From: Patescibacteria group bacterium
GTDB taxonomy: Bacteria; Patescibacteriota; Patescibacteriia; UBA2591; CALHIP01
Assembly: GCA_026417895.1 (NCBI GenBank)
Contig: JAOACJ010000003.1
Coordinates: forward strand, 1 to 61,804
Direction of reading: 5' to 3'
DNA length: 61,804 nt
The translations under genes were made by a program, and so were the position numbers. The number at the start of each line of letters is the position of its first letter. Position 1 is the first letter of the stretch. A model generated the notes under the pieces. That model was not told where the DNA came from and did no database searches. It worked only from the letters and a program-made list of their open reading frames with translations. Positions 26,026 to 61,804 of the stretch are shown here, piece by piece.

Positions 26026-26401
26026 GGGGATGTAATAAAATCGAAAGGAAAGGAAACTGTAGAATGGCTTTCCGGTTGAGAGCGCCGAGAATGTTCTCGT
26101 CAATTATAGATGCCAATCAATATGCTTATGCGGTTGCTTAAAAATTAAGTAACCGACTTTGATCTAAAATTTCTGCTATTAGGTCAAAGTATTAAATCAA
26201 GTTCCGCTAAAAATAAAGAGCGGAGCAAGCAGAATTGGACATTTTGACTGTCTGAGTCAAAATGTCGACAAGAATCAGACTAGGTTTCGGAAGGTTTTGT
26301 CTGGTTTTCACTTCCGAACTAAAGAGATAACCAGACTATGAAAGTAGAAGTTCTCAGTTTTCTTCTCCTTGACGTGGGTGAGAAGCCCGCCATCTCCACC
26401 A
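26026..26401 (+). ncRNA. ssrA: tmRNA
   Basis: Acceptor GGGGATG/CATCTCC with G3.U70 and ACCA; resume context TATAGAT|GCC; tag ANQYAYAVA* at 26112-26141; adjacent to smpB. Confidence 0.93.
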
Positions 26402-50136: not shown

Positions 50137-51377
50137 TCAAAGTAGGGTGGTATTATTTCTATATTTTTCTAGTCCTTTTTTTAAAATCTTCATTGCTTCT
50201 TTAAGTTTTGAACTTGATAAAACAAAGGCAATGCGAAATTCGTCTCTACCACCCTTTGGCGTGGCATAGAAACCAGTCCCTGGGGCAACTAAAACTGTTT
50301 TTCCTTGATCGGCAAATTTCGTCAACAACCACTCAGCAAAATGATCCGAATCTTTGAGCCATGGAATTTTGACGAATAAATAAAAAGCCCCTTTCGGCTC
50401 AACAGTAATTACCTCGGGAATAGTCCTCATCTCTTGAAAGACTATATCTCTTCTTTTTTTATATTCGAAAATAATTTTTTTAAGATATTTCTGAGAATTC
50501 TCTAAAAGAGGAACAACGGCTAACTGTTCAACCATTGGTAAAGAAAGTCTGGCTTGGGCAAATTTTATCGCCGACTCAATAACTCTTTTATTCTTACTGG
50601 CTAAAACACCAATTCGCGTCCCACAGGCCGAGAATTTTTTGAAACACTGTCTACTAAAATTACCCACTGAGAAATCTCTGGAAAATTCATCATTGAATAA
50701 TGTTTTTCGCCATCATAAACAAACTCACGATAAGTCTCGTCGGTTATAATAAAGAGGTTATATTTTTTAGCAATTTTAGAAATTATGTTCAATTCCTCTT
50801 TCTTATAAACAGTACCGGTCGGATTGTTTGGATTACAAATAATGATACCTTTTGTTTTTCCATTAATTTTTCTTTCAATTTCTTTTCTATCGGGCAAATG
50901 AAAACCATTTTCTGCTAAAGTCTTAATTGGTTTTAACTTAATACCAGTCATTGAGGCATAACCATTATAATTAGTATAGAAAGGTTCAAAAACAATAATT
51001 TCTTCGCCTGGTTGACAAATGGTAGCAAAGGCAAATAGAATGGCTTCACTAGCACCAATCGTCACCACCACCTCTGAAAGGCTAAAATCAATTTTTACCC
51101 CCTTAAAATATTTCTGTCAAGCCCTTTTCACTGCAAGTAAACCATCAGAAGGTGTATAAGCCAAAACTTTTTCTTTGAAGTTTCTAATTCTCGCTAAAAT
51201 TTCTTTTGGCGTTTCTAAGTCCGGTTGACCAATATGAACCTCAAAGACTTTAATACTTTTCTTTTTTATTTTTTCTAAAAGTGGCACAAATTTTCTGATC
51301 GGTGAGAATTGGGTCTCCTTAGCGCGAAACAAGATCTCTCTTCTGACTAAATTTTTATATTTTTCAGGCATATGCAT
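50137..51377 (-). pseudogene. PLP-dependent class I/II aminotransferase, split into three ORFs
   Basis: IGQPD, Y.PS.G, VT.GASEA, EPFY.NY, NPNNPTG, DETYRE, SKKFSACG.RIG, PKGAFY. There is an in-frame TGA at 51119-51117 and a 1-nt deletion in the A6 run (plus-strand T 50635-50640). Confidence 0.9.
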
Positions 51378-51398: not shown

Positions 51399-51707
51399 TT
51401 ATATTTTTATTGTTTTTTTTAGCCACTTTAAATAATTTCTTTCAACTTTCTCTAATGACCAAGAAAAAATAGCAGGAATTTGATAAGGATGATTTTTCTT
51501 GATCAATTCTTCAATCTTTCGATAATTTTTCTTTAAAGTTTTTATCATTATCGCCCATTCTTTTGCTTTTTCAATTTTTTGCATCCATAGATATTTTGAA
51601 TCGATTGACCAATAGTTAATACAGACTGCTAATTTTTTCCTTAAAATTTTCTTTATTACTTGTTCGACTGACTTTTTATTAGGAAAGGTGGCGTAGACTA
51701 AAATCAT
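51399..51707 (-). CDS. cutA: CutA divalent-cation tolerance protein
   Basis: KKLAVCIN, SKY.W...IE...E...IKT, HPYQIPAI. Confidence 0.9.
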   Translation of the reverse strand: MILVYATFPNKKSVEQVIKKILRKKLAVCINYWSIDSKYLWMQKIEKAKEWAIMIKTLKKNYRKIEELIKKNHPYQIPAIFSWSLEKVERNYLKWLKKTIKI

Positions 51708-51713
51708 AACTTA

Positions 51714-52190
51714 TCAATTTAATTGTTTTTCATAGCCCACCGGAATAATGGCTAATGGTCTAAATGATTGTTTTAATTGCAAAATTTTGGCAATTTCATT
51801 TTCATCAAAAGCCCCAACCCAACAAGTTCCTAATCCTAAGGCGGTAGCGGCTAAAATTAAATTTTCTGTGGCCGCTGCTGAATCTTGAATGACGTACAGA
51901 TTCCGACCGCGCTCGCCATATCTTGAAGCTGTTTTTTCGACATCAACTGCAACAACAATGACCAACGGTGCTTCAGAAATAAAATACTGACCAAGAGCTG
52001 CTTTAGCAATTTGTTTTTTTGTTTTTTGATCACGAACAACAATAAAATCTGTTGGATAAATTCCACCAGCCGACGGTGCCATTTTTGCCGCTTCAATAAT
52101 TTTTTGAAGATCTTTGTCGGCCACATCTTTTTTAGAATCAAAGGAACGAACTGAATGTCTTTTCTTAATTGTTTGCCAAAAATCTATCAT
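51714..52190 (-). CDS. Nitroreductase family protein
   Basis: IKKRHSVRSF, AA.MAPSAG, D...A.ENL.LAA.ALGLGTCWVG, IIPVGY. Confidence 0.93.
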   Translation of the reverse strand: MIDFWQTIKKRHSVRSFDSKKDVADKDLQKIIEAAKMAPSAGGIYPTDFIVVRDQKTKKQIAKAALGQYFISEAPLVIVVAVDVEKTASRYGERGRNLYVIQDSAAATENLILAATALGLGTCWVGAFDENEIAKILQLKQSFRPLAIIPVGYEKQLN

Positions 52191-52280: not shown

Positions 52281-53018
52281 TCAATAACCAATAGCAAGTC
52301 GCTCAATTAAAAAACTGTGGAAACCTTTACTCTTCATTGCTTCTTGGGTCCTTTGATAATCATATTCTACCCGATGATATTCTAAAGTCAAAAATTCGTT
52401 GTCAAAAATAATAAAACTGGCTTTTGGATTTTGATCACGTGGCTGGCCAACTGAACCGGGATTAATAATATAACGAGAATTTTTTTCAAATTTTAGAAAC
52501 GTTTTATCCGGCGGAAACCGAAATTGATAAATTTTGTTATCTCTTTTTTCAAAAATCATAGGCAAATGAGAATGGCCAACAAAACAAATCTTTTCTTGAA
52601 AAAAACAGAAATTTTCTTTGGCTTGATAAATTTCCATTAGATATTCCCAGATTGGATCACGAATTGAACCATGGGTTAGAATAATATTTTCTTCTGGTTT
52701 TAAAGTTAAGGGTAGATTTTCTAAAAATTTTTTGTTTTCTTGAGAAATTTCAGAAGTATTAATTTTTATTGCTAAAGCAGCATAAGGATTAAAAAATTCT
52801 ACGCCAATTTTTTTGATAACTGCTAAATCATGATTACCAGCTAAAGAAATTATTTTTTTCTTTCTAATCAATTCAATACATTCATTCGGATTTGGCCCAT
52901 AACCAACAATATCACCTAGGTGCCAAATTTTTTCAATTTTCTTTTTTTCTAATTCAAAGATTACTGCCTTACAAGCTTCTAAATTTGAATGGATATCTGA
53001 TAAAATACCTATTTTCAC
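52281..53018 (-). CDS. Calcineurin-like metallophosphoesterase
   Basis: SDIHSN, LGDIVGYG, GNHD, THGS, GHSH, INPGSVGQPRD; GTG start overlaps the upstream TGA. Confidence 0.93.
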   Translation of the reverse strand: MKIGILSDIHSNLEACKAVIFELEKKKIEKIWHLGDIVGYGPNPNECIELIRKKKIISLAGNHDLAVIKKIGVEFFNPYAALAIKINTSEISQENKKFLENLPLTLKPEENIILTHGSIRDPIWEYLMEIYQAKENFCFFQEKICFVGHSHLPMIFEKRDNKIYQFRFPPDKTFLKFEKNSRYIINPGSVGQPRDQNPKASFIIFDNEFLTLEYHRVEYDYQRTQEAMKSKGFHSFLIERLAIGY

Positions 53019-53569
53019 TCTTTTATTTTGATGGTCGTAAAAATATAAATCTCTGTTTCAGGATCACACCAGGCATCAGCTGGTAGTCCTGCCTTACGGA
53101 GACATAAAACATTTAGAAATTCTTCTAAATTGTAATTAAATTCTTTCGCCACTTCTGGTAAAAAGGTGCCGCCTTGAAAACCGCGTTTGATAATAACACC
53201 ATGCTCACCTAATTTGATCTGAGAGGGATGAGAAATTTTTTTTAGAGGAGAAAGGATGGAAATTTCGATTTTTATTTTTGATAATTCTTCTAAAGTGATG
53301 GGTAAAAAGCGGTTGTCTCCGACAGCCGCCGCCACAGCCATTCTCGCGACTGCTTCCCCTAAAGGATATTGGGGTTCTAAATGACCAATACAACCTCGTA
53401 ATTCTTCATCTTTTTTTAAAGTAACAAAAACGGCTCTTTTTTCTTTCAGTTTTTCAGATCCACTAGTTTGAATTTGAGGTATTTTTCTATATTTCAAATA
53501 AAATTCAATTGAATTTCGCGCTATTTTCAACAATGCTTTTCTTTCTTTTTCTGAAAAATTATTTTCCAT
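53015..53569 (-). CDS. AMMECR1-domain protein (AmmeMemoRadiSam protein A-like)
   Basis: FVTLKK..ELRGCIG, AA..D.RF.P, EISILS, GTFLPEVA, LC.RKAGL..DAW. Confidence 0.92.
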   Translation of the reverse strand: MENNFSEKERKALLKIARNSIEFYLKYRKIPQIQTSGSEKLKEKRAVFVTLKKDEELRGCIGHLEPQYPLGEAVARMAVAAAVGDNRFLPITLEELSKIKIEISILSPLKKISHPSQIKLGEHGVIIKRGFQGGTFLPEVAKEFNYNLEEFLNVLCLRKAGLPADAWCDPETEIYIFTTIKIKE

Positions 53570-53584
53570 TTTTTTAATTATATC

Positions 53585-54481
53585 TTAATCAGCAAAACGA
53601 TAAAGACCATATTTTTTGGCTAAATTAATGGCTGCTTGATATTCCTTTAAAATAATACGACGAGAAAGCTCTGGACATTGAAAAGCCTTATAGCAAGGAT
53701 AATATTGGTCCATAATATTAACAAATGTTTCTTTTGAAATTTCTTCAGCTAAAAATTTCATAATTTTTTCTGTCCCGGCCAAATCATTTGGTAGAATTAA
53801 ATGTCGAACAATCAACCCTTTTTTAGCCACACCATTTTCAGTAATTAAATCTCCCACCTGCCGATGCATTTCTTTGATTGCTTCTTTCATTATTGCAAAA
53901 TAATTTGGAGCTGAAGAATATTTTATTGCTCTTTGATTATCGAAATACTTTGCATCGGGCATATAAATATCAATAATTCCCTCTAAAACTTTTAAAGTTT
54001 CAACCGAATCATAGCCATTTGAGTTATAAACTAAAGGAATTTTTAATTTTTTCTCAATGGCTATTTCTAAGGCTTCTAAAATTTGTGGCACTTGTGGGGT
54101 GGGAGTAACTAAATTGATATTATGACAACCAATTTTTTGTAGATAAATCATTATTTCAGCTAAATTTTTAGCAGAAACCTCCTGACCATAATCTAATTGA
54201 GAAATTTCATAATTTTGACAAAAAATACAAGCCAAATTGCATGAAGTAAAAAAAATTGTCCCCGAGCCATAAACACCAACCAAAAATTTTTCTTCGCCAA
54301 AATGAGGATGAAAGGATGAAACTTTTGCTTTTCGACCTAAGCGACAAAAGCCTTTTTCATTTTTTAATCGATTAATCTTACATTTTCTTGGACAGATTTG
54401 GCAAGGATTTAAAAAAGCAATAGCTCTTTCAACCCTCTTTCTTAACTCTTTCTTCGACAAATTAAGATAAGAAGGAAACAT
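53585..54481 (-). CDS. Radical SAM protein, PflX-like family
   Basis: C.ICPRKC..NR, HFGEE, GSGTIFF, CNLACIFCQN, NINLVTPT, DIYMPDAKY, VRHLILP, NIMDQY.P. Confidence 0.9.
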   Translation of the reverse strand: MFPSYLNLSKKELRKRVERAIAFLNPCQICPRKCKINRLKNEKGFCRLGRKAKVSSFHPHFGEEKFLVGVYGSGTIFFTSCNLACIFCQNYEISQLDYGQEVSAKNLAEIMIYLQKIGCHNINLVTPTPQVPQILEALEIAIEKKLKIPLVYNSNGYDSVETLKVLEGIIDIYMPDAKYFDNQRAIKYSSAPNYFAIMKEAIKEMHRQVGDLITENGVAKKGLIVRHLILPNDLAGTEKIMKFLAEEISKETFVNIMDQYYPCYKAFQCPELSRRIILKEYQAAINLAKKYGLYRFAD

Positions 54482-54492
54482 TGATAAAGATT

Positions 54493-55005
54493 TTAATTTT
54501 TAATTTTTAATTTTCTAAATTTGTTAATTTCGTAGATAGCAATGCCAGTCGCCACTGCTACATTTAAAGATTCTTTCTTGCCATACATTGGCAGATAAAT
54601 AATTTTATCAGCTCTTTTTAATAAACTCTGACAAACGCCCTTGACTTCGTTGCCAACAATTAAAAGTAAAGGAAATTTTGGTCTTAATTTTGTATAGCAA
54701 ATACTTTTTTTGGTTTGTTCTAAAGCAACAATAAAAAAATCTTCCTTTTTTAATTTTTCCACGATTCGCCAACTCTGCCAACAGTGTTCCCAAGGAACTA
54801 TTTTTTCGGCACCTAAAGCTGTCTTGTGTATTTTGATATTTAATTCTCTTTCTCTTTCTTTTCCTGTTTGCCGGCTAGCAAGAGAGGTAATACCGCCAAG
54901 ATAAATTTTATCAATACCAGCTGCTTCAGCAGTCCGAAAAATTGCCCCAACATTAAAAATCGAACGAAGATTATCTAAAAGAAGATAAAATCTTTGGTCG
55001 GCCAT
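54493..55005 (-). CDS. TrmH/SpoU-family RNA 2'-O-methyltransferase
   Basis: LDNLRS.FNVGAIFRTA.A.G, KTALGAE, GNEVKG, LPMYGKKESLNVAVA.GIA.YE. Confidence 0.93.
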   Translation of the reverse strand: MADQRFYLLLDNLRSIFNVGAIFRTAEAAGIDKIYLGGITSLASRQTGKERERELNIKIHKTALGAEKIVPWEHCWQSWRIVEKLKKEDFFIVALEQTKKSICYTKLRPKFPLLLIVGNEVKGVCQSLLKRADKIIYLPMYGKKESLNVAVATGIAIYEINKFRKLKIKN

Positions 55006-56068
55006 AAAGTATCTTCAATGTCTTGGTTTTATCTAAATTGCTTATTTTGGCTCTACAGAGAGCTCTTTCTAAAATAGAAATTGATTGATCATATTGTTTT
55101 TTATTAACCGGATAAGGTGTACCATCTTTACCGCCATGAGCAAATGAATATCGGACCGGGTCATGAAAACTCGGCTTAGCCCCATAGATTAACTCCGAAA
55201 TTAAAGCTAAAGCGCGTAATGTTTTTGGACCAATGCCTTGATAAGAAACCAACTCTTCATAATTTTTTGGTTGTTTTTCGTGAGCAATAAATAAATTTTT
55301 TATCATTCTTTTTTCTCCTTCTGGTTTCAATGGAATCCAGTGATATTTGGGCATATTTAAGACTCTAATTTTTTTAAAATCTTTTAAGAAATTTTGGAAA
55401 GGGGCACGAACAATTTCGGTAGAAATTTTTCTTGTTTTCTCACTCTCCTTAGCTACTAAATTTAGTGGTTTTGTTTTAAAATCGCAACAAACGGCTGAAT
55501 GTGGTTCATTAACAAAATTAAAATTAGATGAATTAAGAGATAGCCAGTGATAGCGTCGAGCCATTTGAATTTCTGGATTCATTCCTTGTTGAATGACGGC
55601 CCAGTCTCCTTGCTTAGTAAAAATGAAAGTATGATGATAAATTTGAAAACCATCTTGTAAGCAAGAATTATCAATTTTGGCTGACATTTTTGAAGCATAA
55701 ATAAGTTTTGGAACAAATTTCAGAGAAAATTTCTCGCCATATTCCTCAATTTCTGATGGCGCTTTTCTTGAAGTTTTTCCCTTACCGCCAACGACAAAAA
55801 GGCCAAAAGATTTTTCTGTCCCTCGTAATGCTTCCTTGATCGCCCCGCAAACAGTTGTACTCAAACCAGAAGAATGCCAATCAAAGCCTAGAAGACAGCC
55901 AAAAGACTGAAACCAATAAGGATCAGCAAGGCGAAATAAAATTTCTTTTTGACCAAATTCTAAAATCATCGCTTCAATGATGGCGCGGGCTAATTTTTTC
56001 ATTCTGGCAAAAAGCCAGCTTGGCATCAAACCCCAATGAAGTGGTAAATTGGCAATTCCTGTTCGCAT
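54971..56068 (-). CDS. DUF763 family protein
   Basis: MRTGIANLPLH.G..P.WL, DP.WFQSFGC.LGFDWHSSG.ST, K.DNS..QDGF..YHH, G.GPKTLRALAL.SE.IYG, YSFAHGGKDG.PYPV. Confidence 0.9.
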   Translation of the reverse strand: MRTGIANLPLHWGLMPSWLFARMKKLARAIIEAMILEFGQKEILFRLADPYWFQSFGCLLGFDWHSSGLSTTVCGAIKEALRGTEKSFGLFVVGGKGKTSRKAPSEIEEYGEKFSLKFVPKLIYASKMSAKIDNSCLQDGFQIYHHTFIFTKQGDWAVIQQGMNPEIQMARRYHWLSLNSSNFNFVNEPHSAVCCDFKTKPLNLVAKESEKTRKISTEIVRAPFQNFLKDFKKIRVLNMPKYHWIPLKPEGEKRMIKNLFIAHEKQPKNYEELVSYQGIGPKTLRALALISELIYGAKPSFHDPVRYSFAHGGKDGTPYPVNKKQYDQSISILERALCRAKISNLDKTKTLKILYGRPKILSSFR

Positions 56069-56083
56069 AGTTATTTTTCAAAA

Positions 56084-57112
56084 CTATTCTTTAAAAATTT
56101 TATTTTCGTTTTGATCAACTTTAATTTTAACACCTAAAAATTTTTCCAGAAGCCAAAGATGAGTCAAAAGATGATTAGTTATTTTTGAAACCGTAAAGGC
56201 AAAAGGTTTTTTAGTTAAGGCCAGGTATAAGACAATCTGATCAGCTAAATAAGGGTCTAAGACTTTGTTTGAGTGAAAATAGGCTAAAAAATCTTTCGCT
56301 GCCTCTTGGCCGACTTTTTCCGCTGGCTTGCCAATTGCGCCTAACGAAGAAAAACCGGCTAGAGTATCTTCGAATTCTGCTTTTAAGAAAATAAACGTGC
56401 CTGGAGATAAGGCTGAAATTTTCTCTGTCTTAATTTTCTTAACGATCGTGATATTTTTTAAGATGCTAAGAACGGCCTCTTTTTGTCGTTCAGCAATAGA
56501 AAAATTTAGATTAGCCACCGTAGAAAGGCCAGAGATTTTTTGAAGTTTTCCTCTGGTTAAAAAATTTTTCTCCTCAATCTTTGCTGTTGGGGAAACAAAT
56601 AGCCTCATTCTTCCTCCGCCCCTTGGATAAAAACCATATTTTTCAAGTTTACTTTCCGCTTTTATACCTAATTTCTCTATCGTAGGTAAAAAAACTTCTG
56701 AAAAATAATGAAAAGGTGGAGCTAAAGGATTATGCGTTCCACCTATTATTAAAACTTCAGAGGGGTGCTTAGAAAAAGCCAATGGTAGCAAAATAGTTTG
56801 GGCAACCAGCGTAGTTGAACCAGCGGTGCCAATATCAAATTCAAATTTGCCAAACTTAATTTTTTTAGGCTCAAATTTTAAAACTTGAGAACCAATTTTT
56901 GCTCCAGAAATTTTTGCTTGAGAAATTTTTTCCGCTGCCCTTACTGCTGCTAAATGTTGTGCTTGTAAACCAGGATTTTTTCTTTTGGCCCGGATATTAA
57001 AAATTTCAACAGCCTGATTGGTTATTATCGAAAGAGATAAACTTGTCCGCAAAATCTGACCACCCCCCTCACCATAACTTCCATCAATTCTTAATATTTT
57101 CCCCCTCATCAT
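56084..57112 (-). CDS. rtcA: RNA 3'-terminal phosphate cyclase
   Basis: IDGS.GEGGGQILRTSL.LS, R..PGL..QH, GTAGS..LV.QT, GGTH.P.AP, GFYP.GGG, LADQ, NHLLT (catalytic His region). Confidence 0.95.
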   Translation of the reverse strand: MMRGKILRIDGSYGEGGGQILRTSLSLSIITNQAVEIFNIRAKRKNPGLQAQHLAAVRAAEKISQAKISGAKIGSQVLKFEPKKIKFGKFEFDIGTAGSTTLVAQTILLPLAFSKHPSEVLIIGGTHNPLAPPFHYFSEVFLPTIEKLGIKAESKLEKYGFYPRGGGRMRLFVSPTAKIEEKNFLTRGKLQKISGLSTVANLNFSIAERQKEAVLSILKNITIVKKIKTEKISALSPGTFIFLKAEFEDTLAGFSSLGAIGKPAEKVGQEAAKDFLAYFHSNKVLDPYLADQIVLYLALTKKPFAFTVSKITNHLLTHLWLLEKFLGVKIKVDQNENKIFKE

Positions 57113-57172: not shown

Positions 57173-57493
57173 TTATTTAATTTCTGTGAGTTGCTTTTTG
57201 ATTTCTTCTTTTATTCTTTTTACCTCTCGTTTGACTGTCTCGGTATTATATTCAGCGGAGTGAGCTGGAGAGCCAACATATGATGGTTTTTTCTGATCTA
57301 AATGTAAATTGAAAATTATTTCTTTTGGTGTCTCTTTTTGAAGGTATAAATGAAATCTTGGATAAGAATAAAGGCCAACTCGATGAACAAAGCTTATTTG
57401 GCCAGTCTTTTTATCTTTAATTTCTCGGTAACCGCAACGTCTGATTAATTTTATTAAATTAAGACCATTTTCTTTTTGAAGAAGAATTTTCAT
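57173..57493 (-). CDS. Conserved hypothetical protein
   Basis: RCGY...SFV.R.G...YPRFHLY...LHLDQKKPSY....H.AEY, a pattern recognised from CPR genomes. Confidence 0.7.
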   Translation of the reverse strand: MKILLQKENGLNLIKLIRRCGYREIKDKKTGQISFVHRVGLYSYPRFHLYLQKETPKEIIFNLHLDQKKPSYVGSPAHSAEYNTETVKREVKRIKEEIKKQLTEIK

Positions 57494-57548: not shown

Positions 57549-60500
57549 TTAGATTATTCTCTGCCAGATTTGGTAGAGAATTTGATTTTTGATTTTTTGA
57601 TCTAAGATTGAATCAAGATAATCTTTAATAATTCCATCTATATTGGATTTTGTACGTTCTAAGTCATCAATAATTTTTTCTAAATATTTCTGACTTTTTG
57701 GAATTTTAATTGATTGAGCACCAACCTCAAGCCAAATTTTAAGATAACGAGCCTCGATTTCTGAACGACAGTTAATAAAGTTATTTTTTTTATAATCTAA
57801 CACCCAACCGAGAGTAGATTTACGAATTTTTAATTTATCAATTTTAGAGGGTAATTTTTTAAGAATCAAATCTTTACGGTAAAGAATTTTTTCTTTATAA
57901 AATTTCTTTAAAGTATTTTCACCAATTTTTTCTAAAACAGTATTAATTAATGCCTCAATGTCAATACCAGTTTTTGTTTTTTTCTTTTTATCAACACTCT
58001 TTGCTTTTTCAATTCTTGATTTTACTAAATCAACGACTGCCCGATAAACCTCAAGTTGTTCCTCGTCAGTAAGTCCTAAAATTTCGCCCATAATAATTCT
58101 GTCCAATTCGCGACGATCAGGTTTTATTTTATCTAAAGAAACTGTCTGCGAATTTTCTGTACCTATTTCTTCAAAAATATTACCAATAGTTCTTTTTGAA
58201 ATTATATCGAAACATTTTTCCAATTTTTTAATTATATTACCAGACAATTTTTTTATATTAATAAAAAATAAATTTTTTAAATGATCTACGGTCAATGTGA
58301 CCACTGTTAAAGCGCCTGTTAATTCTTGGCCAGAATTTTCTATTATGAGGCGTTGAAGGGTTGAATTTATAATCGACAAAAAGACTTTTTTATATGAACC
58401 ATCTTTAAGGGTAAGGTAATAAAACATTTTATCGGCGTAAATTTGACTTGGATTAAGAAAACAAGCAAATCTTTCTCCAATATTAACCCACCATAATATT
58501 TCATGTCTTTCATCTGGCAGAGCCCACCACATTTCCCGACCAGCACAGGTTGGTCTTTTATGAAATCCTTTTCGTTCGCCTTCTAAAATATATTTTAAAA
58601 CATTTGTTCCTTTTAATTCTTTTTTATCTTTATGAATCATTAACACTCGATACTTTAAATCTTTTGGTTTGACAATAATTGATTTACATTCTCGCGGGCT
58701 TTTAATGACATAGTTCGGTAGCCAATGACCATTTTCATCTTGATGCATCCAAAATTCTTTTTCAATTTTCCTCCTTTTTATCTCTTCCTCGGTTAAATAG
58801 AAAAATTCGTTAGCACCGGTCTTAATACCAAATCGTACATCAGCAATTTCTTTCAAGGGCACTAATTTATCTTTACCCTTTTCCAAAATTTTAAAGAAAA
58901 TCTCCGGCGCCCGGATGTATTTGCCCCATTTTGAGCCGATATATTTTTGTTTTTCTATATCGAACCCTTCATCCCAAAGCTCTGATTGTCTTTTTGGGTA
59001 AATTCGCAACTCGTCATTCTGATAAAATTCGTTATGGAATTTAATTGTTTTTATCAGTTCATCAATTTTATCTAATCTTTGTTTTTGTTTTTCCCAAATA
59101 TCTTGAGCCGGTGGAATAAAATGGCGCAATGGTTTTAACAAATAGACAAAACGGACGAGATTTTCATCACGTTCTTTTTTGAATTCTAGGCCACTCGCTT
59201 TTTCCAAAATAACAAGACAGGTATTGATATCAGCGTCTTCAAACCATCTTTCAACCTTTGATTCAATAACAGCAATGATTTTATAATTTTTGAGAAAAAA
59301 TTCTTGAAGGCCGGTACCATATTCTACGTCTAACCAGGCATTAGAGACAATAAAACCAAAACGACCGTTATTTTTTAAAAATTTTGTGCCGTGAATAAAG
59401 AAATAAGTATAAATGCCAGCACGTTTAGAAATATTGGCTGTTTTCCGAGGACCATAAGTGAGGGCTTTATTAATTAAACGCTCTTTGTAGGTCTTTTCAC
59501 CGCTTATTTCGGAAATTTCTTCTTGACGAGTATAGGGTGGATTACCAACAATTACCTCAAACCAGCGCGGATGAATAATTTCTAATTCCTTGCCACTCAC
59601 TGTCTTTAACATTATTTTTCTTACATCCTCTGGCAATTGAAATCCTTGATCTTCAAAACTTAAGAGATCAAAAAAATCTTTTTGAATAATGCGAGGATAG
59701 TTTTTGTCAACGCTTAAATCATTAATAGCCAAATTGATGGTGGCTAAATGGGCAGGAAATTTAGCAATATCAATACCCCAGAGATCATTCAATATTTTTT
59801 CATGTGATAATCTTTGATTCATTAATTTTTTGTGTTGATAAGCACGAACCAGAAAAGTCCCAGCACCACAAGCTGGATCTAGAATTTTGTCATCTTCATG
59901 TCGAAGACAAAACTTTAAAATTAAATCTACAATATCGGGATTGGTAAAATACTGACCTAAAGTATGCCGCTCATCTTCTGGAATAAGGCGTTCAAAAACT
60001 CTGCCGACGATATCAAAACCAAGGGTGGAAAAATCATATCTTTTAAGAAGATTGACTAGTTTTTTAATTTCTTCCACTACTTCTTGACTTTCTGGAAAAG
60101 CAAGTTGATCAATAAAATCAGTTGTATAAATTGTCTCATAATCTATCTTAAGAACTTGACCAAAATAGCCCTGAAGAAAACTTTTTAATAAACCTCCCTT
60201 AGTTATATCCTCTGGTATGGATAGAGGATTGAGTTCGTTAGACCGTTTCGATTGTAAAACATTATAGAAAAGAATTTTATTAACTAAAAGATAAGCGGTT
60301 TGACGAGCTGCTTTATCAAAATCGCTATTCTGCCAAGCAAAACTCCAACCTTGGTCGATGAACCATTTTCGTAAATCTTTAATAAATTTACTATCTTTAT
60401 GCGCTTGATCATAAATTATTGCCTGATAGTAATGAGCCAATTTTTTGATTATTTCTTGAAGTCGCCAAATAAGAAACTCATCAATGGCTAATTTTGGCTC

Positions 60501-61052
60501 TACTTTTATGCCGGTAGAGATTTGATAAAGATCTTTAAGAAACTTATCAAGGCCAGCAATAATGCTATTTTTAAATCTCGCTTCTTCAATTAAATCGAGA
60601 TCATTAATTTCTGATAGGTGGTATTTCTGAACAATTTGCCTCTCTTCTTTCTCTTGGGCATTAACTTTTTCAGTATTCCAAAGAATCAACTCTTTAAAAT
60701 TTGAGGTGGCAAAATATTTTGCTTTTTGACTATTTGCTTTTTCCCAGGCCGGCATTTTCAATTCTTTTTCGTCAAATGGATCAAAATATGGCGGTTTAAA
60801 TTCCATTTCACAGAGAATTTCTCTAATCCGACGAGTTTTATAGACAGCTGCGTCTGGATATTTTCCATCTTTACTAATAGTTTCTACATCAGGTAAACCC
60901 AAATCAAGACTGTTTTGTTCAATAATATTTCTCATCCAATGCATTAGTATCGCCACAGCTGATCTTTCTGTCTTGTGTGATGAAATATCAAAGGGGCTAG
61001 AAATTCTAGTCTCGGTTGTTTTAGAAATCTTACCTAATTTTTTACTTTTCAT
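57549..61052 (-). CDS. Type IIG-like fused restriction endonuclease/N6-adenine methyltransferase
   Basis: N-terminal YPD...EMEFK nuclease motif, LGQYFT..IV, ILDPACGAGTFL (motif I), VGNPPY (motif IV), VRFGIKTGAN.FF, TRD-like C-terminus. Confidence 0.9.
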   Translation of the reverse strand: MKSKKLGKISKTTETRISSPFDISSHKTERSAVAILMHWMRNIIEQNSLDLGLPDVETISKDGKYPDAAVYKTRRIREILCEMEFKPPYFDPFDEKELKMPAWEKANSQKAKYFATSNFKELILWNTEKVNAQEKEERQIVQKYHLSEINDLDLIEEARFKNSIIAGLDKFLKDLYQISTGIKVEPKLAIDEFLIWRLQEIIKKLAHYYQAIIYDQAHKDSKFIKDLRKWFIDQGWSFAWQNSDFDKAARQTAYLLVNKILFYNVLQSKRSNELNPLSIPEDITKGGLLKSFLQGYFGQVLKIDYETIYTTDFIDQLAFPESQEVVEEIKKLVNLLKRYDFSTLGFDIVGRVFERLIPEDERHTLGQYFTNPDIVDLILKFCLRHEDDKILDPACGAGTFLVRAYQHKKLMNQRLSHEKILNDLWGIDIAKFPAHLATINLAINDLSVDKNYPRIIQKDFFDLLSFEDQGFQLPEDVRKIMLKTVSGKELEIIHPRWFEVIVGNPPYTRQEEISEISGEKTYKERLINKALTYGPRKTANISKRAGIYTYFFIHGTKFLKNNGRFGFIVSNAWLDVEYGTGLQEFFLKNYKIIAVIESKVERWFEDADINTCLVILEKASGLEFKKERDENLVRFVYLLKPLRHFIPPAQDIWEKQKQRLDKIDELIKTIKFHNEFYQNDELRIYPKRQSELWDEGFDIEKQKYIGSKWGKYIRAPEIFFKILEKGKDKLVPLKEIADVRFGIKTGANEFFYLTEEEIKRRKIEKEFWMHQDENGHWLPNYVIKSPRECKSIIVKPKDLKYRVLMIHKDKKELKGTNVLKYILEGERKGFHKRPTCAGREMWWALPDERHEILWWVNIGERFACFLNPSQIYADKMFYYLTLKDGSYKKVFLSIINSTLQRLIIENSGQELTGALTVVTLTVDHLKNLFFINIKKLSGNIIKKLEKCFDIISKRTIGNIFEEIGTENSQTVSLDKIKPDRRELDRIIMGEILGLTDEEQLEVYRAVVDLVKSRIEKAKSVDKKKKTKTGIDIEALINTVLEKIGENTLKKFYKEKILYRKDLILKKLPSKIDKLKIRKSTLGWVLDYKKNNFINCRSEIEARYLKIWLEVGAQSIKIPKSQKYLEKIIDDLERTKSNIDGIIKDYLDSILDQKIKNQILYQIWQRII

Positions 61053-61362
61053 AATTTTTTAATATCTCCCTAACTATTCTTTTAGCAATTTCAAAGGCGG
61101 CAGCAATACGAATCACTTTTACATCACCTAAACCTTTAATTTTTAATAAATTCTTAAGTGGTTGATTAGATAAACCTTTAAAAGAATTAAATTTTTCTAA
61201 AAGTTCTTGGGCTATGTTTTCGGCTGTTTTTCCTTTGATGCCAGTTGAAATAAGAATAGCTAAAAGTTCGGCATTAGAAAGTTTATCAGGACCAAGTTCT
61301 CTGAGTTTTCCGCCTGGGTGTTTCCATTTTTGGACATTTTTTCGTTTTTTATGTCTTCTCAT
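61042..61362 (-). CDS. Stand-alone RadC N-terminal (UPF0758 HhH) domain protein
   Basis: HPGGKL...G...LSNAELLAILI.TG, L..IKGLG.VK..RI.AA.EI.KR; no JAB domain; overlaps the RM gene start by 11 nt. Confidence 0.85.
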   Translation of the reverse strand: MRRHKKRKNVQKWKHPGGKLRELGPDKLSNAELLAILISTGIKGKTAENIAQELLEKFNSFKGLSNQPLKNLLKIKGLGDVKVIRIAAAFEIAKRIVREILKNYEK

Positions 61363-61384: not shown

Positions 61385-61804
61385 TTATTTTACCAAAATT
61401 ACAGAAAATGTCCTTTTCCTGCCCTTTACTTTTTTTGAATATTTTTTAGTTAATAGTTCTGCCGCTTTAATTGCTTTATTTACGATCATTTTGCCGCGGA
61501 CAAGAGTCGTTGGGCCGGGAATATCTTTAAGTTCAATTAAAATATCGCCTTTCTTAGCAATTTTTTTTAATTTCAAATTTTCTTCATGGTTTCGACCGAC
61601 AATAATTAAGGTTTTGTCCAACCAAAAGTGTCGGCCAAGTCTTAGAAGTTTAGTATCGTTTTCATCTAAATTACCAAAATTTTCAAGCATCGTTTTCAGT
61701 CTTTTTGCAAATTCTCGATCGCATAAAAGACAACCGCCAGCCGGTGCGGGATAATTTTTTAAATTATATTTTTTAGCCAATTCTATTTGTGACACTCGTC
61801 GACG
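61385..61804 (-). CDS. C-terminal part of a ThiI/MnmA-like tRNA thiouridylase-family protein (runs off the window)
   Basis: Q.ELAKKY....YPAPAGGCLL.D..F..RL, LLRLGRHF, IIVGRN..EN; frame open to the window edge. Confidence 0.75.
   Translation of the reverse strand, partial: RRRVSQIELAKKYNLKNYPAPAGGCLLCDREFAKRLKTMLENFGNLDENDTKLLRLGRHFWLDKTLIIVGRNHEENLKLKKIAKKGDILIELKDIPGPTTLVRGKMIVNKAIKAAELLTKKYSKKVKGRKRTFSVILVK

Follow-up and report, generated by a model that had tools for sequence, protein, structure and literature searches.

When bacterial RNA is repaired by the Pnkp/Hen1 system, the repaired end is 2'-O-methylated; a second theme, the AMMECR1 and radical S-adenosylmethionine (SAM) partnership of AmmeMemoRadiSam (models TIGR04335, TIGR04336 and TIGR04337), is known as a predicted system. 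The Rtc and archease parts of the present locus are likewise already known: two papers describe an archease-RtcB 'tRNA splicing operon' in archaea and bacteria (PMC3973293) and the rtcBA operon of Escherichia coli and Salmonella, which is controlled by RtcR and sigma-54 (PMC7790460). Here we set against these systems a row of six minus-strand genes in a window of 61,804 nucleotides (nt), which is one whole contig (C4) of the 649,900-base, 18-contig genome (G000; completeness rating 98.5%) of a Patescibacteria group bacterium. From upstream to downstream, the six encode RtcA, an RNA 3'-terminal phosphate cyclase (56084-57112; 342 amino acids, aa); a DUF763 protein (54971-56068; 365 aa); a minimal SpoU/TrmH-class RNA 2'-O-methyltransferase domain (54493-55005; 170 aa); a PflX-like radical SAM enzyme that is a paralogue of AmrS (53585-54481; 298 aa); a stand-alone AMMECR1 protein (53015-53569; 184 aa); and a calcineurin-like metallophosphoesterase (52281-53018; 245 aa). 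The row can be read as joining three units, namely RtcA, DUF763-SpoU and radical SAM-AMMECR1-phosphoesterase, and we suggest, with evenly balanced confidence, that a super-operon peculiar to this family extends a canonical Rtc cluster and has the six genes in its downstream part; the last two units would be candidate accessory factors and not a self-contained pathway.

The first-pass annotation of this DNA had taken rtcB, Memo and AmrS to be missing, and proposed that DUF763 and the phosphoesterase replace the lost partners. Contig C5, however, opens with exactly the 141 nt that end the window (61664-61804), and the truncated open reading frames (ORFs) at the window end and at the start of C5 are halves of a single PP-loop ATPase, with the identical stretch shared between them: the window piece (61385-61804, minus strand; the 3' part of a ThiI-like gene that continues on C5) has 62% identity to the C-terminal part of the homologue in G003, a genome of the same family, and the C5 ORF gives the N-terminal part. 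Because of this overlap and the ATPase gene split across the junction, rtcB is restored to the rtcA locus; on C5 an RtcB gene (586 bits) lies directly after archease and is co-directional with it, and once C4 and C5 are joined it shares its strand with rtcA and precedes it by ~5.9 kb, with six ORFs between. Overlaps like this one of 141 nt typically arise where a k-mer assembly branches, and another path from that branch is conceivable. The sequencing runs listed as containing the 4.8-kb stretch of the six genes comprise no RNA run and a single DNA run, which is probably the source; one contig of that run extends 587 nt beyond the end of the window. In G001, a genome of the same genus, archease-RtcB and RtcA stand on one contig, 3.9 kb apart.

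The remaining partners are encoded on another contig, C15, which carries a true AmrS (319.9 bits with TIGR04337, whose cut-off is 220). A LigB/Memo-like gene, the sole candidate for Memo-like protein B, follows 4.9 kb further downstream (TIGR04336, 27.1 against 26; PF02900, 140 bits). Nothing therefore needs replacing, because RtcA, RtcB and archease lie close together and AmrS and the LigB/Memo-like gene are found elsewhere in the genome. The organism has an ordinary heal-and-seal set of RtcA, RtcB and archease, with the three genes close together, and neither the supposed losses nor the proposed substitutions were borne out. Of the two observations that the same annotation named as refuting it, one was made, since the partners are present elsewhere; the other was not, since the gene order is kept in the closest relatives.

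Set beside the described operons, the locus is a mixture of the familiar and the unfamiliar. As in the tRNA splicing operon, RtcB on C5 has archease as its co-directional neighbour, and the pair also occurs in G001, G008, G105 and the locus L173; unlike that operon, the pair here heads a longer row with RtcA, DUF763, SpoU, the radical SAM enzyme, AMMECR1 and the phosphoesterase. As in the rtcBA operon, the RtcB ligase and the RtcA cyclase are encoded on the same strand and the catalytic histidine of RtcA is aligned, but here ~5.9 kb, taken up by other genes and an insertion, separates rtcB from rtcA, and archease is encoded as well. Rfam at the gathering score gave no Ro or Y RNA, and no match to RtcR (PF06956) was found in this 98.5%-complete genome, a search in which the E. 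coli control matched. The likeness to Pnkp/Hen1 would be one of functional analogy: in both, the gene for an RNA 2'-O-methyltransferase accompanies those for enzymes that heal and ligate ends, but the enzymes are unrelated, with SpoU in the place of Hen1 and RtcA/RtcB in that of Pnkp.

Read along the minus strand, the ORF list and profile scans give a co-directional row that extends past the six genes on both sides, in the order archease, rtcB, a small beta-barrel protein, a 71-aa ORF, the ThiI-like PP-loop ATPase, a RadC fragment with a methyltransferase, a 106-aa ORF, rtcA, DUF763, SpoU, radical SAM, AMMECR1, metallophosphoesterase, nitroreductase, CutA and aminotransferase. The 106-aa ORF immediately upstream of rtcA (57173-57493, minus strand) has no Pfam or NCBIfam match, and is preceded by a 1167-aa Eco57I/MmeI-type DNA methyltransferase and a 106-aa RadC N-terminal fragment (57549-61362, minus strand; Eco57I, N6_Mtase, MmeI_Mtase and UPF0758_N). 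In G003 (L145) the PP-loop ATPase, the 106-aa ORF (homologue at E 1e-39) and rtcA are contiguous, and the methyltransferase and RadC fragment are missing between the first two; this contiguity suggests that the RadC fragment and methyltransferase were probably inserted in G000, 57549-61362 being probably a restriction-modification-like insertion into the row. The assembly breaks ~0.4 kb beyond this insertion, at the end of the next gene. That gene, the ThiI/MnmA-like PP-loop ATPase, comprises window 61385-61804 together with L001:1-669, and has homologues at L017:6991-7959 and L027:6987-7925; it also stands directly upstream of DUF763 in G018 and in the Saccharibacteria contig L027, where there is also a match to the RNA-binding domain NFACT-R_2.

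Within the six genes themselves, the spacing from rtcA downstream is +15, -35, +11, +15 and -4 nt (minus denoting overlap), which gives exactly the limits previously noted for a co-oriented set (gaps of at most 15 nt, overlaps of 35 and 4 nt), and Pfam and NCBIfam scans bear out all six of the earlier family calls. Scans for regulatory signals were uninformative, both for promoter-like sites (55 against 42.7±6.2 in shuffles) and for minus-strand terminator-like sites, none of which was seen inside the six genes. RtcA scores 396 bits with TIGR03399 (cut-off 250), matches PF01137 and carries the RTC_insert domain (PF05189, 77 bits); its best match by sequence in the PDB is 4o89 (8.5e-74). Its His314, invariant in all seven sequences of our RtcA alignment, aligns with the histidine of 'itnHl' in Pyrococcus horikoshii 4o89 and with His309 of E. 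coli 1qmh, which we take to be the catalytic histidine that becomes adenylylated.

How far the arrangement is kept was followed in an order-level sample of 41 genomes, DUF763 being present in 10 of them (G001 belongs to the same genus as the window's genome, G002 and G003 to the same family, f1; L numbers denote loci). The window genome is bacterial, with QueA and PriA present, and proteins of its relatives carry the labels Patescibacteria or Parcubacteria. G001 keeps the whole row on one contig, with an MFS transporter gene inserted between rtcA and DUF763 (archease-RtcB...RtcA-MFS-DUF763-SpoU-radical SAM-AMMECR1-phosphoesterase-nitroreductase-CutA), and G003 has DUF763-radical SAM-AMMECR1-phosphoesterase-nitroreductase-CutA without SpoU. 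Two genomes of other families have parts of it: RtcA-DUF763-SpoU-nitroreductase, without the radical SAM trio, in G035, and archease-(DUF192)-RtcB-small protein-DUF763-unknown-RNase H-like-LigD 3'-phosphoesterase in G008. The neighbours of DUF763 are unrelated in G015, G018, G006 and G011, again of other families (RbfA and LigA; the ThiI-like ATPase and GroES/EL; others). The gene immediately after DUF763 is a SpoU orthologue in G001, G035 and G105 (the two genes overlap by 4 nt in G105), such that this adjacency spans three families; the radical SAM-AMMECR1-phosphoesterase trio, on the other hand, was found in this sample only in G000-G003. The six-gene row is not a conserved module. What recurs in other Patescibacteria families is the pairwise linkage of DUF763 with Rtc genes and with SpoU; the row as a whole is confined to one family, and the AMMECR1-radical SAM pair was not seen outside it in the loci examined.

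A small protein of 85-92 aa, with weak matches to the EF-Tu domain 2 and U32_C beta-barrels, keeps similar company (L001:1055-1312 on C5, L014:8670-8939, L015:15829-16107, L045:7662-7919 and L076:9070-9327). Its gene comes after RtcB in G000 and G001, and between RtcB and DUF763 in G008. It adjoins DUF763 in both L045 and L076, is a close neighbour in L026 and L042, and is separated from DUF763 by 2-6 kb in G176, G266 and G053; in G038 (L115) it is found beside Memo-AMMECR1. The protein may have a genuine partnership with DUF763 or RtcB.

A phylum sample of 301 genomes allows these links to be counted, DUF763 being found over the cut-off in 21 genomes, RtcB in 40, RtcA in 6 and the PflX-like radical SAM enzyme in 8. 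RtcB is present in 10/21 DUF763 genomes against 30/280 others (p=7e-5), DUF763 in 5/6 RtcA genomes (p=6e-6) and the radical SAM enzyme in 4/6 RtcA genomes (p=3e-6), all by one-sided Fisher tests that ignore shared ancestry and that include a DUF763 pseudogene (G141) and an RtcA pseudogene (G235). RtcB accompanies RtcA in all six RtcA-bearing genomes, and the ten genomes with both DUF763 and RtcB represent ten families. G000, G053, G176 and G266 have all four genes although their genomes are of only 0.5-0.8 Mb, a size that would argue against a 'gene-rich lineage' as the cause of co-occurrence. Physical linkage adds to this, DUF763 lying within 11 kb of RtcB in four of the ten genomes with both, each from a different family (6.9 kb in G000, 0.3 kb in G008, 3.4 kb in G235 and 10.8 kb in G105, the last with archease-RtcB; rough binomial p=1e-4). 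As for the two pseudogenes, DUF763 is decayed by several stop codons in G141 (C5:7373-8252) and RtcA is broken in G235 (C14:5272-6122), with RtcB intact in both. Because of the recurring pairwise links and the co-occurrence, we lean towards the view that both DUF763 and the PflX-like radical SAM enzyme target nucleic acid, within one broad process that they share with the Rtc enzymes; the wider connection to RNA repair or modification drawn in the first-pass annotation survives in this weaker form, and the specific pathway it proposed does not.

DUF763 belongs to a large and highly conserved family, and matches PF05559 with 438 bits over profile positions 1-319 of 319. It has at least 8000 homologues, with 55-58% identity across many phyla, and no function-bearing name was seen in the homologue listing. 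The N-domain is rich in histidine, and an alignment reveals many invariant His, Asp, Gln and Arg residues, which suggests that this domain is an enzyme. An AlphaFold2 model (mean predicted local distance difference test score 83.3; predicted template modelling score 0.82) gave no Foldseek match to the PDB at E<=1e-3; with VIA-align the whole model reached a best Z of 5.5, and the N-domain a best of 6.7 (a designed cystatin-fold protein) and 5.9 (TldE/PmbA), none of which rises to the noise level given for the tool. Sequence and profile searches of the PDB produced nothing better than E 0.5, and the ESM Atlas no usable match. DUF763 thus appears, from its model, to be without a convincing structural relative, and we do not claim a new fold, residues 17-88 being barely covered. 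Residues ~209-296 resemble helix-hairpin-helix modules by structure comparison, and relatives have weak Pfam HHH matches. In the literature the name DUF763 was found only in a domain census, to which searches for COG1415, PF05559 and IPR008482 added nothing. Co-folding of RtcA and SpoU with DUF763 as the scored partner returned a score of 0.00 in two runs, and no verdict from the tool.

The SpoU protein is a bare catalytic domain (PF00588, 104 bits against 29.7) without an extra RNA-binding domain, and falls below the equivalog cut-offs of both RlmB (TIGR00186, 107 against 160) and TrmH (NF008295, 64 against 227); its best PDB match is 1zjr, a TrmH (3e-17). Of the two enzymes that flank AMMECR1, the radical SAM enzyme matches PF04055 with 50.6 bits and was correctly called PflX-like, and not AmrS, by the first-pass annotation: it scores 27.7 on the AmrS model TIGR04337 (cut-off 220) and has 27% identity to the genome's own AmrS, while its relatives at 53-70% identity bear the Joint Genome Institute (JGI) name 'putative pyruvate formate lyase activating enzyme'. 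The PflX-type naming, with what we take to be the labels COG1313 and K04070, comes solely from the JGI name of these close relatives. No PDB sequence match was obtained for the enzyme, and literature searches for PflX, COG1313 and K04070 gave only unrelated papers among the matches listed.

In placing an AMMECR1 protein above the TIGR04335 cut-off (180.7 bits against 99; PF01871, 183 bits) directly after a radical SAM enzyme of the AmrS branch, the locus recalls AmmeMemoRadiSam, for which a literature search on AMMECR1, radical SAM and Memo gave only a passing citation of the system. It departs from that system in that the adjacent radical SAM enzyme fails TIGR04337 and no Memo gene adjoins, a metallophosphoesterase standing there instead; the true AmrS and the LigB/Memo-like gene are on another contig, and the AMMECR1 genes of order relatives are mostly Memo-AMMECR1 fusions. 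AMMECR1 is present in 24/41 genomes of the order-level sample, 12 of the 24 genes lying in frames of 492-556 aa, and all ten that were scanned are such fusions. In G006, next to a Memo-AMMECR1 gene, a LigD-type 3'-phosphoesterase gene carries an intein with a LAGLIDADG endonuclease (L104:2023-3510). The phosphoesterase of the row matches PF12850 (Metallophos_2) with 78 bits and misses the cut-off of the YfcE model (TIGR00040, 42.4 against 56.25); its best PDB match is an uncharacterised metallophosphoesterase, 3rqz (8e-56), with a weak match to the Ap4A hydrolase 3qfm. Among the relatives examined, it was found only in the family genomes G000-G003.

A further view of the radical SAM enzyme comes from metagenome loci, for which the best 80 of 516 relatives were examined. 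RtcA lies within 5 kb of the radical SAM gene in 6/80 of these, in four of the six behind an NTPase_1 gene. The gene directly adjoins RtcB in L167, and L173:3402-8753 encodes on one strand a seryl-tRNA synthetase, the PflX-like radical SAM enzyme, archease, RtcB and a 261-aa SpoU-class methyltransferase; this contig is archaeal-looking, having an S13/S15-type ribosomal protein and an archaeal-type seryl-tRNA synthetase. A quick tree divides the Rtc-linked loci between two clades: one includes all six RtcA-linked loci and has the window enzyme as its sister, and the two RtcB-linked loci make up the other. A Memo-PGA_cap fusion directly follows the radical SAM gene in two loci, and in two more a PGA_cap-type phosphoesterase lies beside or near it; a nitroreductase is upstream in 5/80. 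Four loci (L153, L166, L176 and L177) share a row of CoA-enzyme-activase-like genes (BcrAD/HGD-D/DUF2229), nitroreductase, DUF498, PflX-like radical SAM, DUF2905 and NTPase_1 (PF03266), which faces a convergent rtcA and then a PRPP-synthetase-like gene, and at L154:1970-4195 the BcrAD/BadFG-type ATPase upstream of the radical SAM gene contains an intein.

Downstream of the six genes, the row continues after a 90-nt gap into a nitroreductase-family gene (51714-52190, minus strand; PF00881, 130 bits) and, 6 nt further on, CutA (51399-51707, minus strand; PF03091, 100 bits). The nitroreductase follows the phosphoesterase in G001, G002 and G003 and directly follows SpoU in G035, and CutA is kept in G001-G003. 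Next comes a class I/II aminotransferase in three ORFs of 86, 156 and 176 aa (50137-51377, minus strand), which match successive parts of NF005744; it is intact in G001 (407 aa, L015:4191-5414), and in the window is either a pseudogene or the product of assembly frameshifts. At the gathering score, Rfam gives no RNA family in window 48-61.8 kb or at the start of C5; the window's tmRNA gene (26026-26401, plus strand; 87 bits) and its five tRNA genes are in other parts of it and not near the row.

Against the reading of the row as the extension of an Rtc cluster must be weighed the plain possibility of juxtaposition: that compaction in one family has brought these genes together, and that only RtcA, with RtcB-archease upstream, acts in RNA repair, the other five genes being unrelated to it. 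By genome-wide statistics from a simple ORF caller, 84% of 616 adjacent ORF pairs in the window genome are co-directional, 45% of 518 same-strand gaps are of 15 nt or less, and there are six runs of at least six genes in which every gap is that short. Three of the other five such runs have a coherent function (one of ribosomal proteins, two of envelope glycosylation), and two are mixed: GyrA-YidC-ClpB-sugar nucleotidyltransferase-binding protein-pilins, and RNase H-P-type ATPase-RecJ-glycosyltransferase-RmuC. (One tight glycosyltransferase/O-antigen-ligase run is headed by a 155-aa ORF with a match to PycTM, a Pycsar effector; L128:1-468, that is G000:C14:35001-35468.) Tight packing is weak evidence of a shared pathway, because such runs are common and two of the five others are mixed; the packing of the six genes exceeds chance only weakly, and the caution, already voiced at first pass, that gene order in reduced genomes can be coincidental was justified. 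Several further observations, together with the two mixed runs, weigh against a functional extension. The row is found only in family f1, and is variable even there (complete in G000, with the MFS gene in G001, without SpoU in G003, and in part in G002), and it runs on into nitroreductase, CutA and aminotransferase. Among 28 other DUF763-bearing Patescibacteria genomes, 21 have no RtcA match and 12 no RtcB match. In the phylum sample, the SpoU orthologue was found in just 2/5 genomes searched and the phosphoesterase, with the window query, in 0/5, and AMMECR1 and the phosphoesterase adjoin the radical SAM gene in 0/7 other genomes that have the enzyme; window-type AMMECR1 is likewise beside that gene in 0/80 metagenome loci. 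In all six of the RtcA-linked loci, which probably represent one clade, RtcA is convergent and so not co-transcribed with the radical SAM gene, and the SpoU-class gene of L173 belongs to a different subfamily from that of the window (E 0.009). To our knowledge, moreover, DUF763, the PflX-like enzyme and AMMECR1 have no known biochemical function. Pure juxtaposition does not readily account for the way in which small genomes from different families combine RtcA, RtcB, DUF763 and the radical SAM enzyme, for the nearness of DUF763 to RtcB or RtcA in four families and its adjacency to SpoU in three, or for the two clades in which the radical SAM gene is linked to an Rtc gene (RtcA or RtcB); we consider it somewhat unlikely, though the main alternative.

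It may also be that DUF763 is mainly a factor of DNA-damage or strand-break repair, its place beside rtcA reflecting a general theme of nucleic-acid end-processing. The best 80 of 598 DUF763 loci from other phyla were examined within ±8 kb, with Pfam run on 137 immediate neighbours (79 loci), and there DNA-repair genes adjoin DUF763 in 7/79: PolX lies directly downstream on the same strand in three (L039, L042 and L048), and DNA polymerase I (PolA), an OGG glycosylase, an O6-methylguanine-transferase (MGMT)-like gene and GIY-YIG occur in one each. The G015 gene faces an NAD-dependent DNA ligase, with a methylpurine glycosylase nearby; G008 has the RNase H-like and LigD 3'-phosphoesterase genes; and a helix-hairpin-helix region would suit such a role. 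RNA-modification neighbours, however, are about equally frequent, at 6/79 loci (RsmB/F in two, RsmD in one, a ThiI-like ATPase in one and an Elp3-like enzyme in two), the links within Patescibacteria are to RtcA, RtcB and SpoU, and the DUF763 model has no fold match to any repair enzyme, all of which makes us regard a primarily DNA-directed role as unlikely. The remaining neighbours in these other phyla belong to unrelated metabolism, and no conserved neighbourhood emerges: the most frequent neighbour family occurs in only 5/79 loci, and RtcA, RtcB and archease each in 0/80 within ±8 kb, which again favours juxtaposition and tells against the Rtc connection. As for the original proposal, that RtcB and Memo/AmrS are missing and have DUF763 and the phosphoesterase as substitutes, it is true that there is no rtcB or Memo gene inside the window and that the adjacent radical SAM enzyme is not AmrS; with RtcB and archease just past the window end, AmrS and the LigB/Memo-like gene on C15, and RtcB present wherever RtcA was found in the phylum sample, we judge it very improbable.

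Returning to the reading of the six genes as an extended Rtc cluster, we propose a speculative scheme for how its three units might work. RtcA would cyclise RNA 3'-phosphate ends, for ligation by RtcB-archease. In the second unit, DUF763 might bind nucleic acid via its helix-hairpin-helix region, with the His-rich N-domain performing end or lesion chemistry, and the minimal SpoU enzyme might, by analogy with Pnkp/Hen1, 2'-O-methylate the same RNA. The third, an AmmeMemoRadiSam-like trio of AmrS paralogue, AMMECR1 and phosphoesterase, could modify a nucleotide or RNA substrate. As regards DUF763 and the radical SAM enzyme, the specific chemistry given here is conjectural. A bolder form of the scheme, which we consider unlikely, is that RtcB/RtcA repair in Patescibacteria and some archaea has accessory parts that have gone unrecognised, namely DUF763, in many cases together with a minimal SpoU, and the PflX-like radical SAM enzyme: DUF763 might then be a helix-hairpin-helix enzyme of new fold that recognises or trims damaged RNA ends, SpoU might methylate the repaired site against re-cleavage, and the radical SAM enzyme, with AMMECR1/Memo-type partners and the phosphoesterase, might restore or install a modification lost on damage.

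The locus reveals no new pathway, and corrects the impression of an absent partner. What is new here is the contig join that restores rtcB, the finding of AmrS elsewhere in the genome, the quantified co-occurrence of four genes and the two-clade link between PflX-like enzymes and Rtc genes. For scans of reduced genomes in general, tight co-directional rows are common, and contig ends may conceal a partner that is supposedly absent. DUF763, AMMECR1 and the PflX-type radical SAM enzymes are widespread families without demonstrated function, and the cellular role of RtcA is itself unclear. Two leads stand out from this analysis: a highly conserved protein, DUF763, that tracks rtcA/rtcB in one phylum, and a radical SAM family whose genes, in two distinct clades, adjoin archease-RtcB or lie near RtcA. 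Should either link prove true, it would add components to prokaryotic RNA repair, and would give an orphan family its first substrate class.

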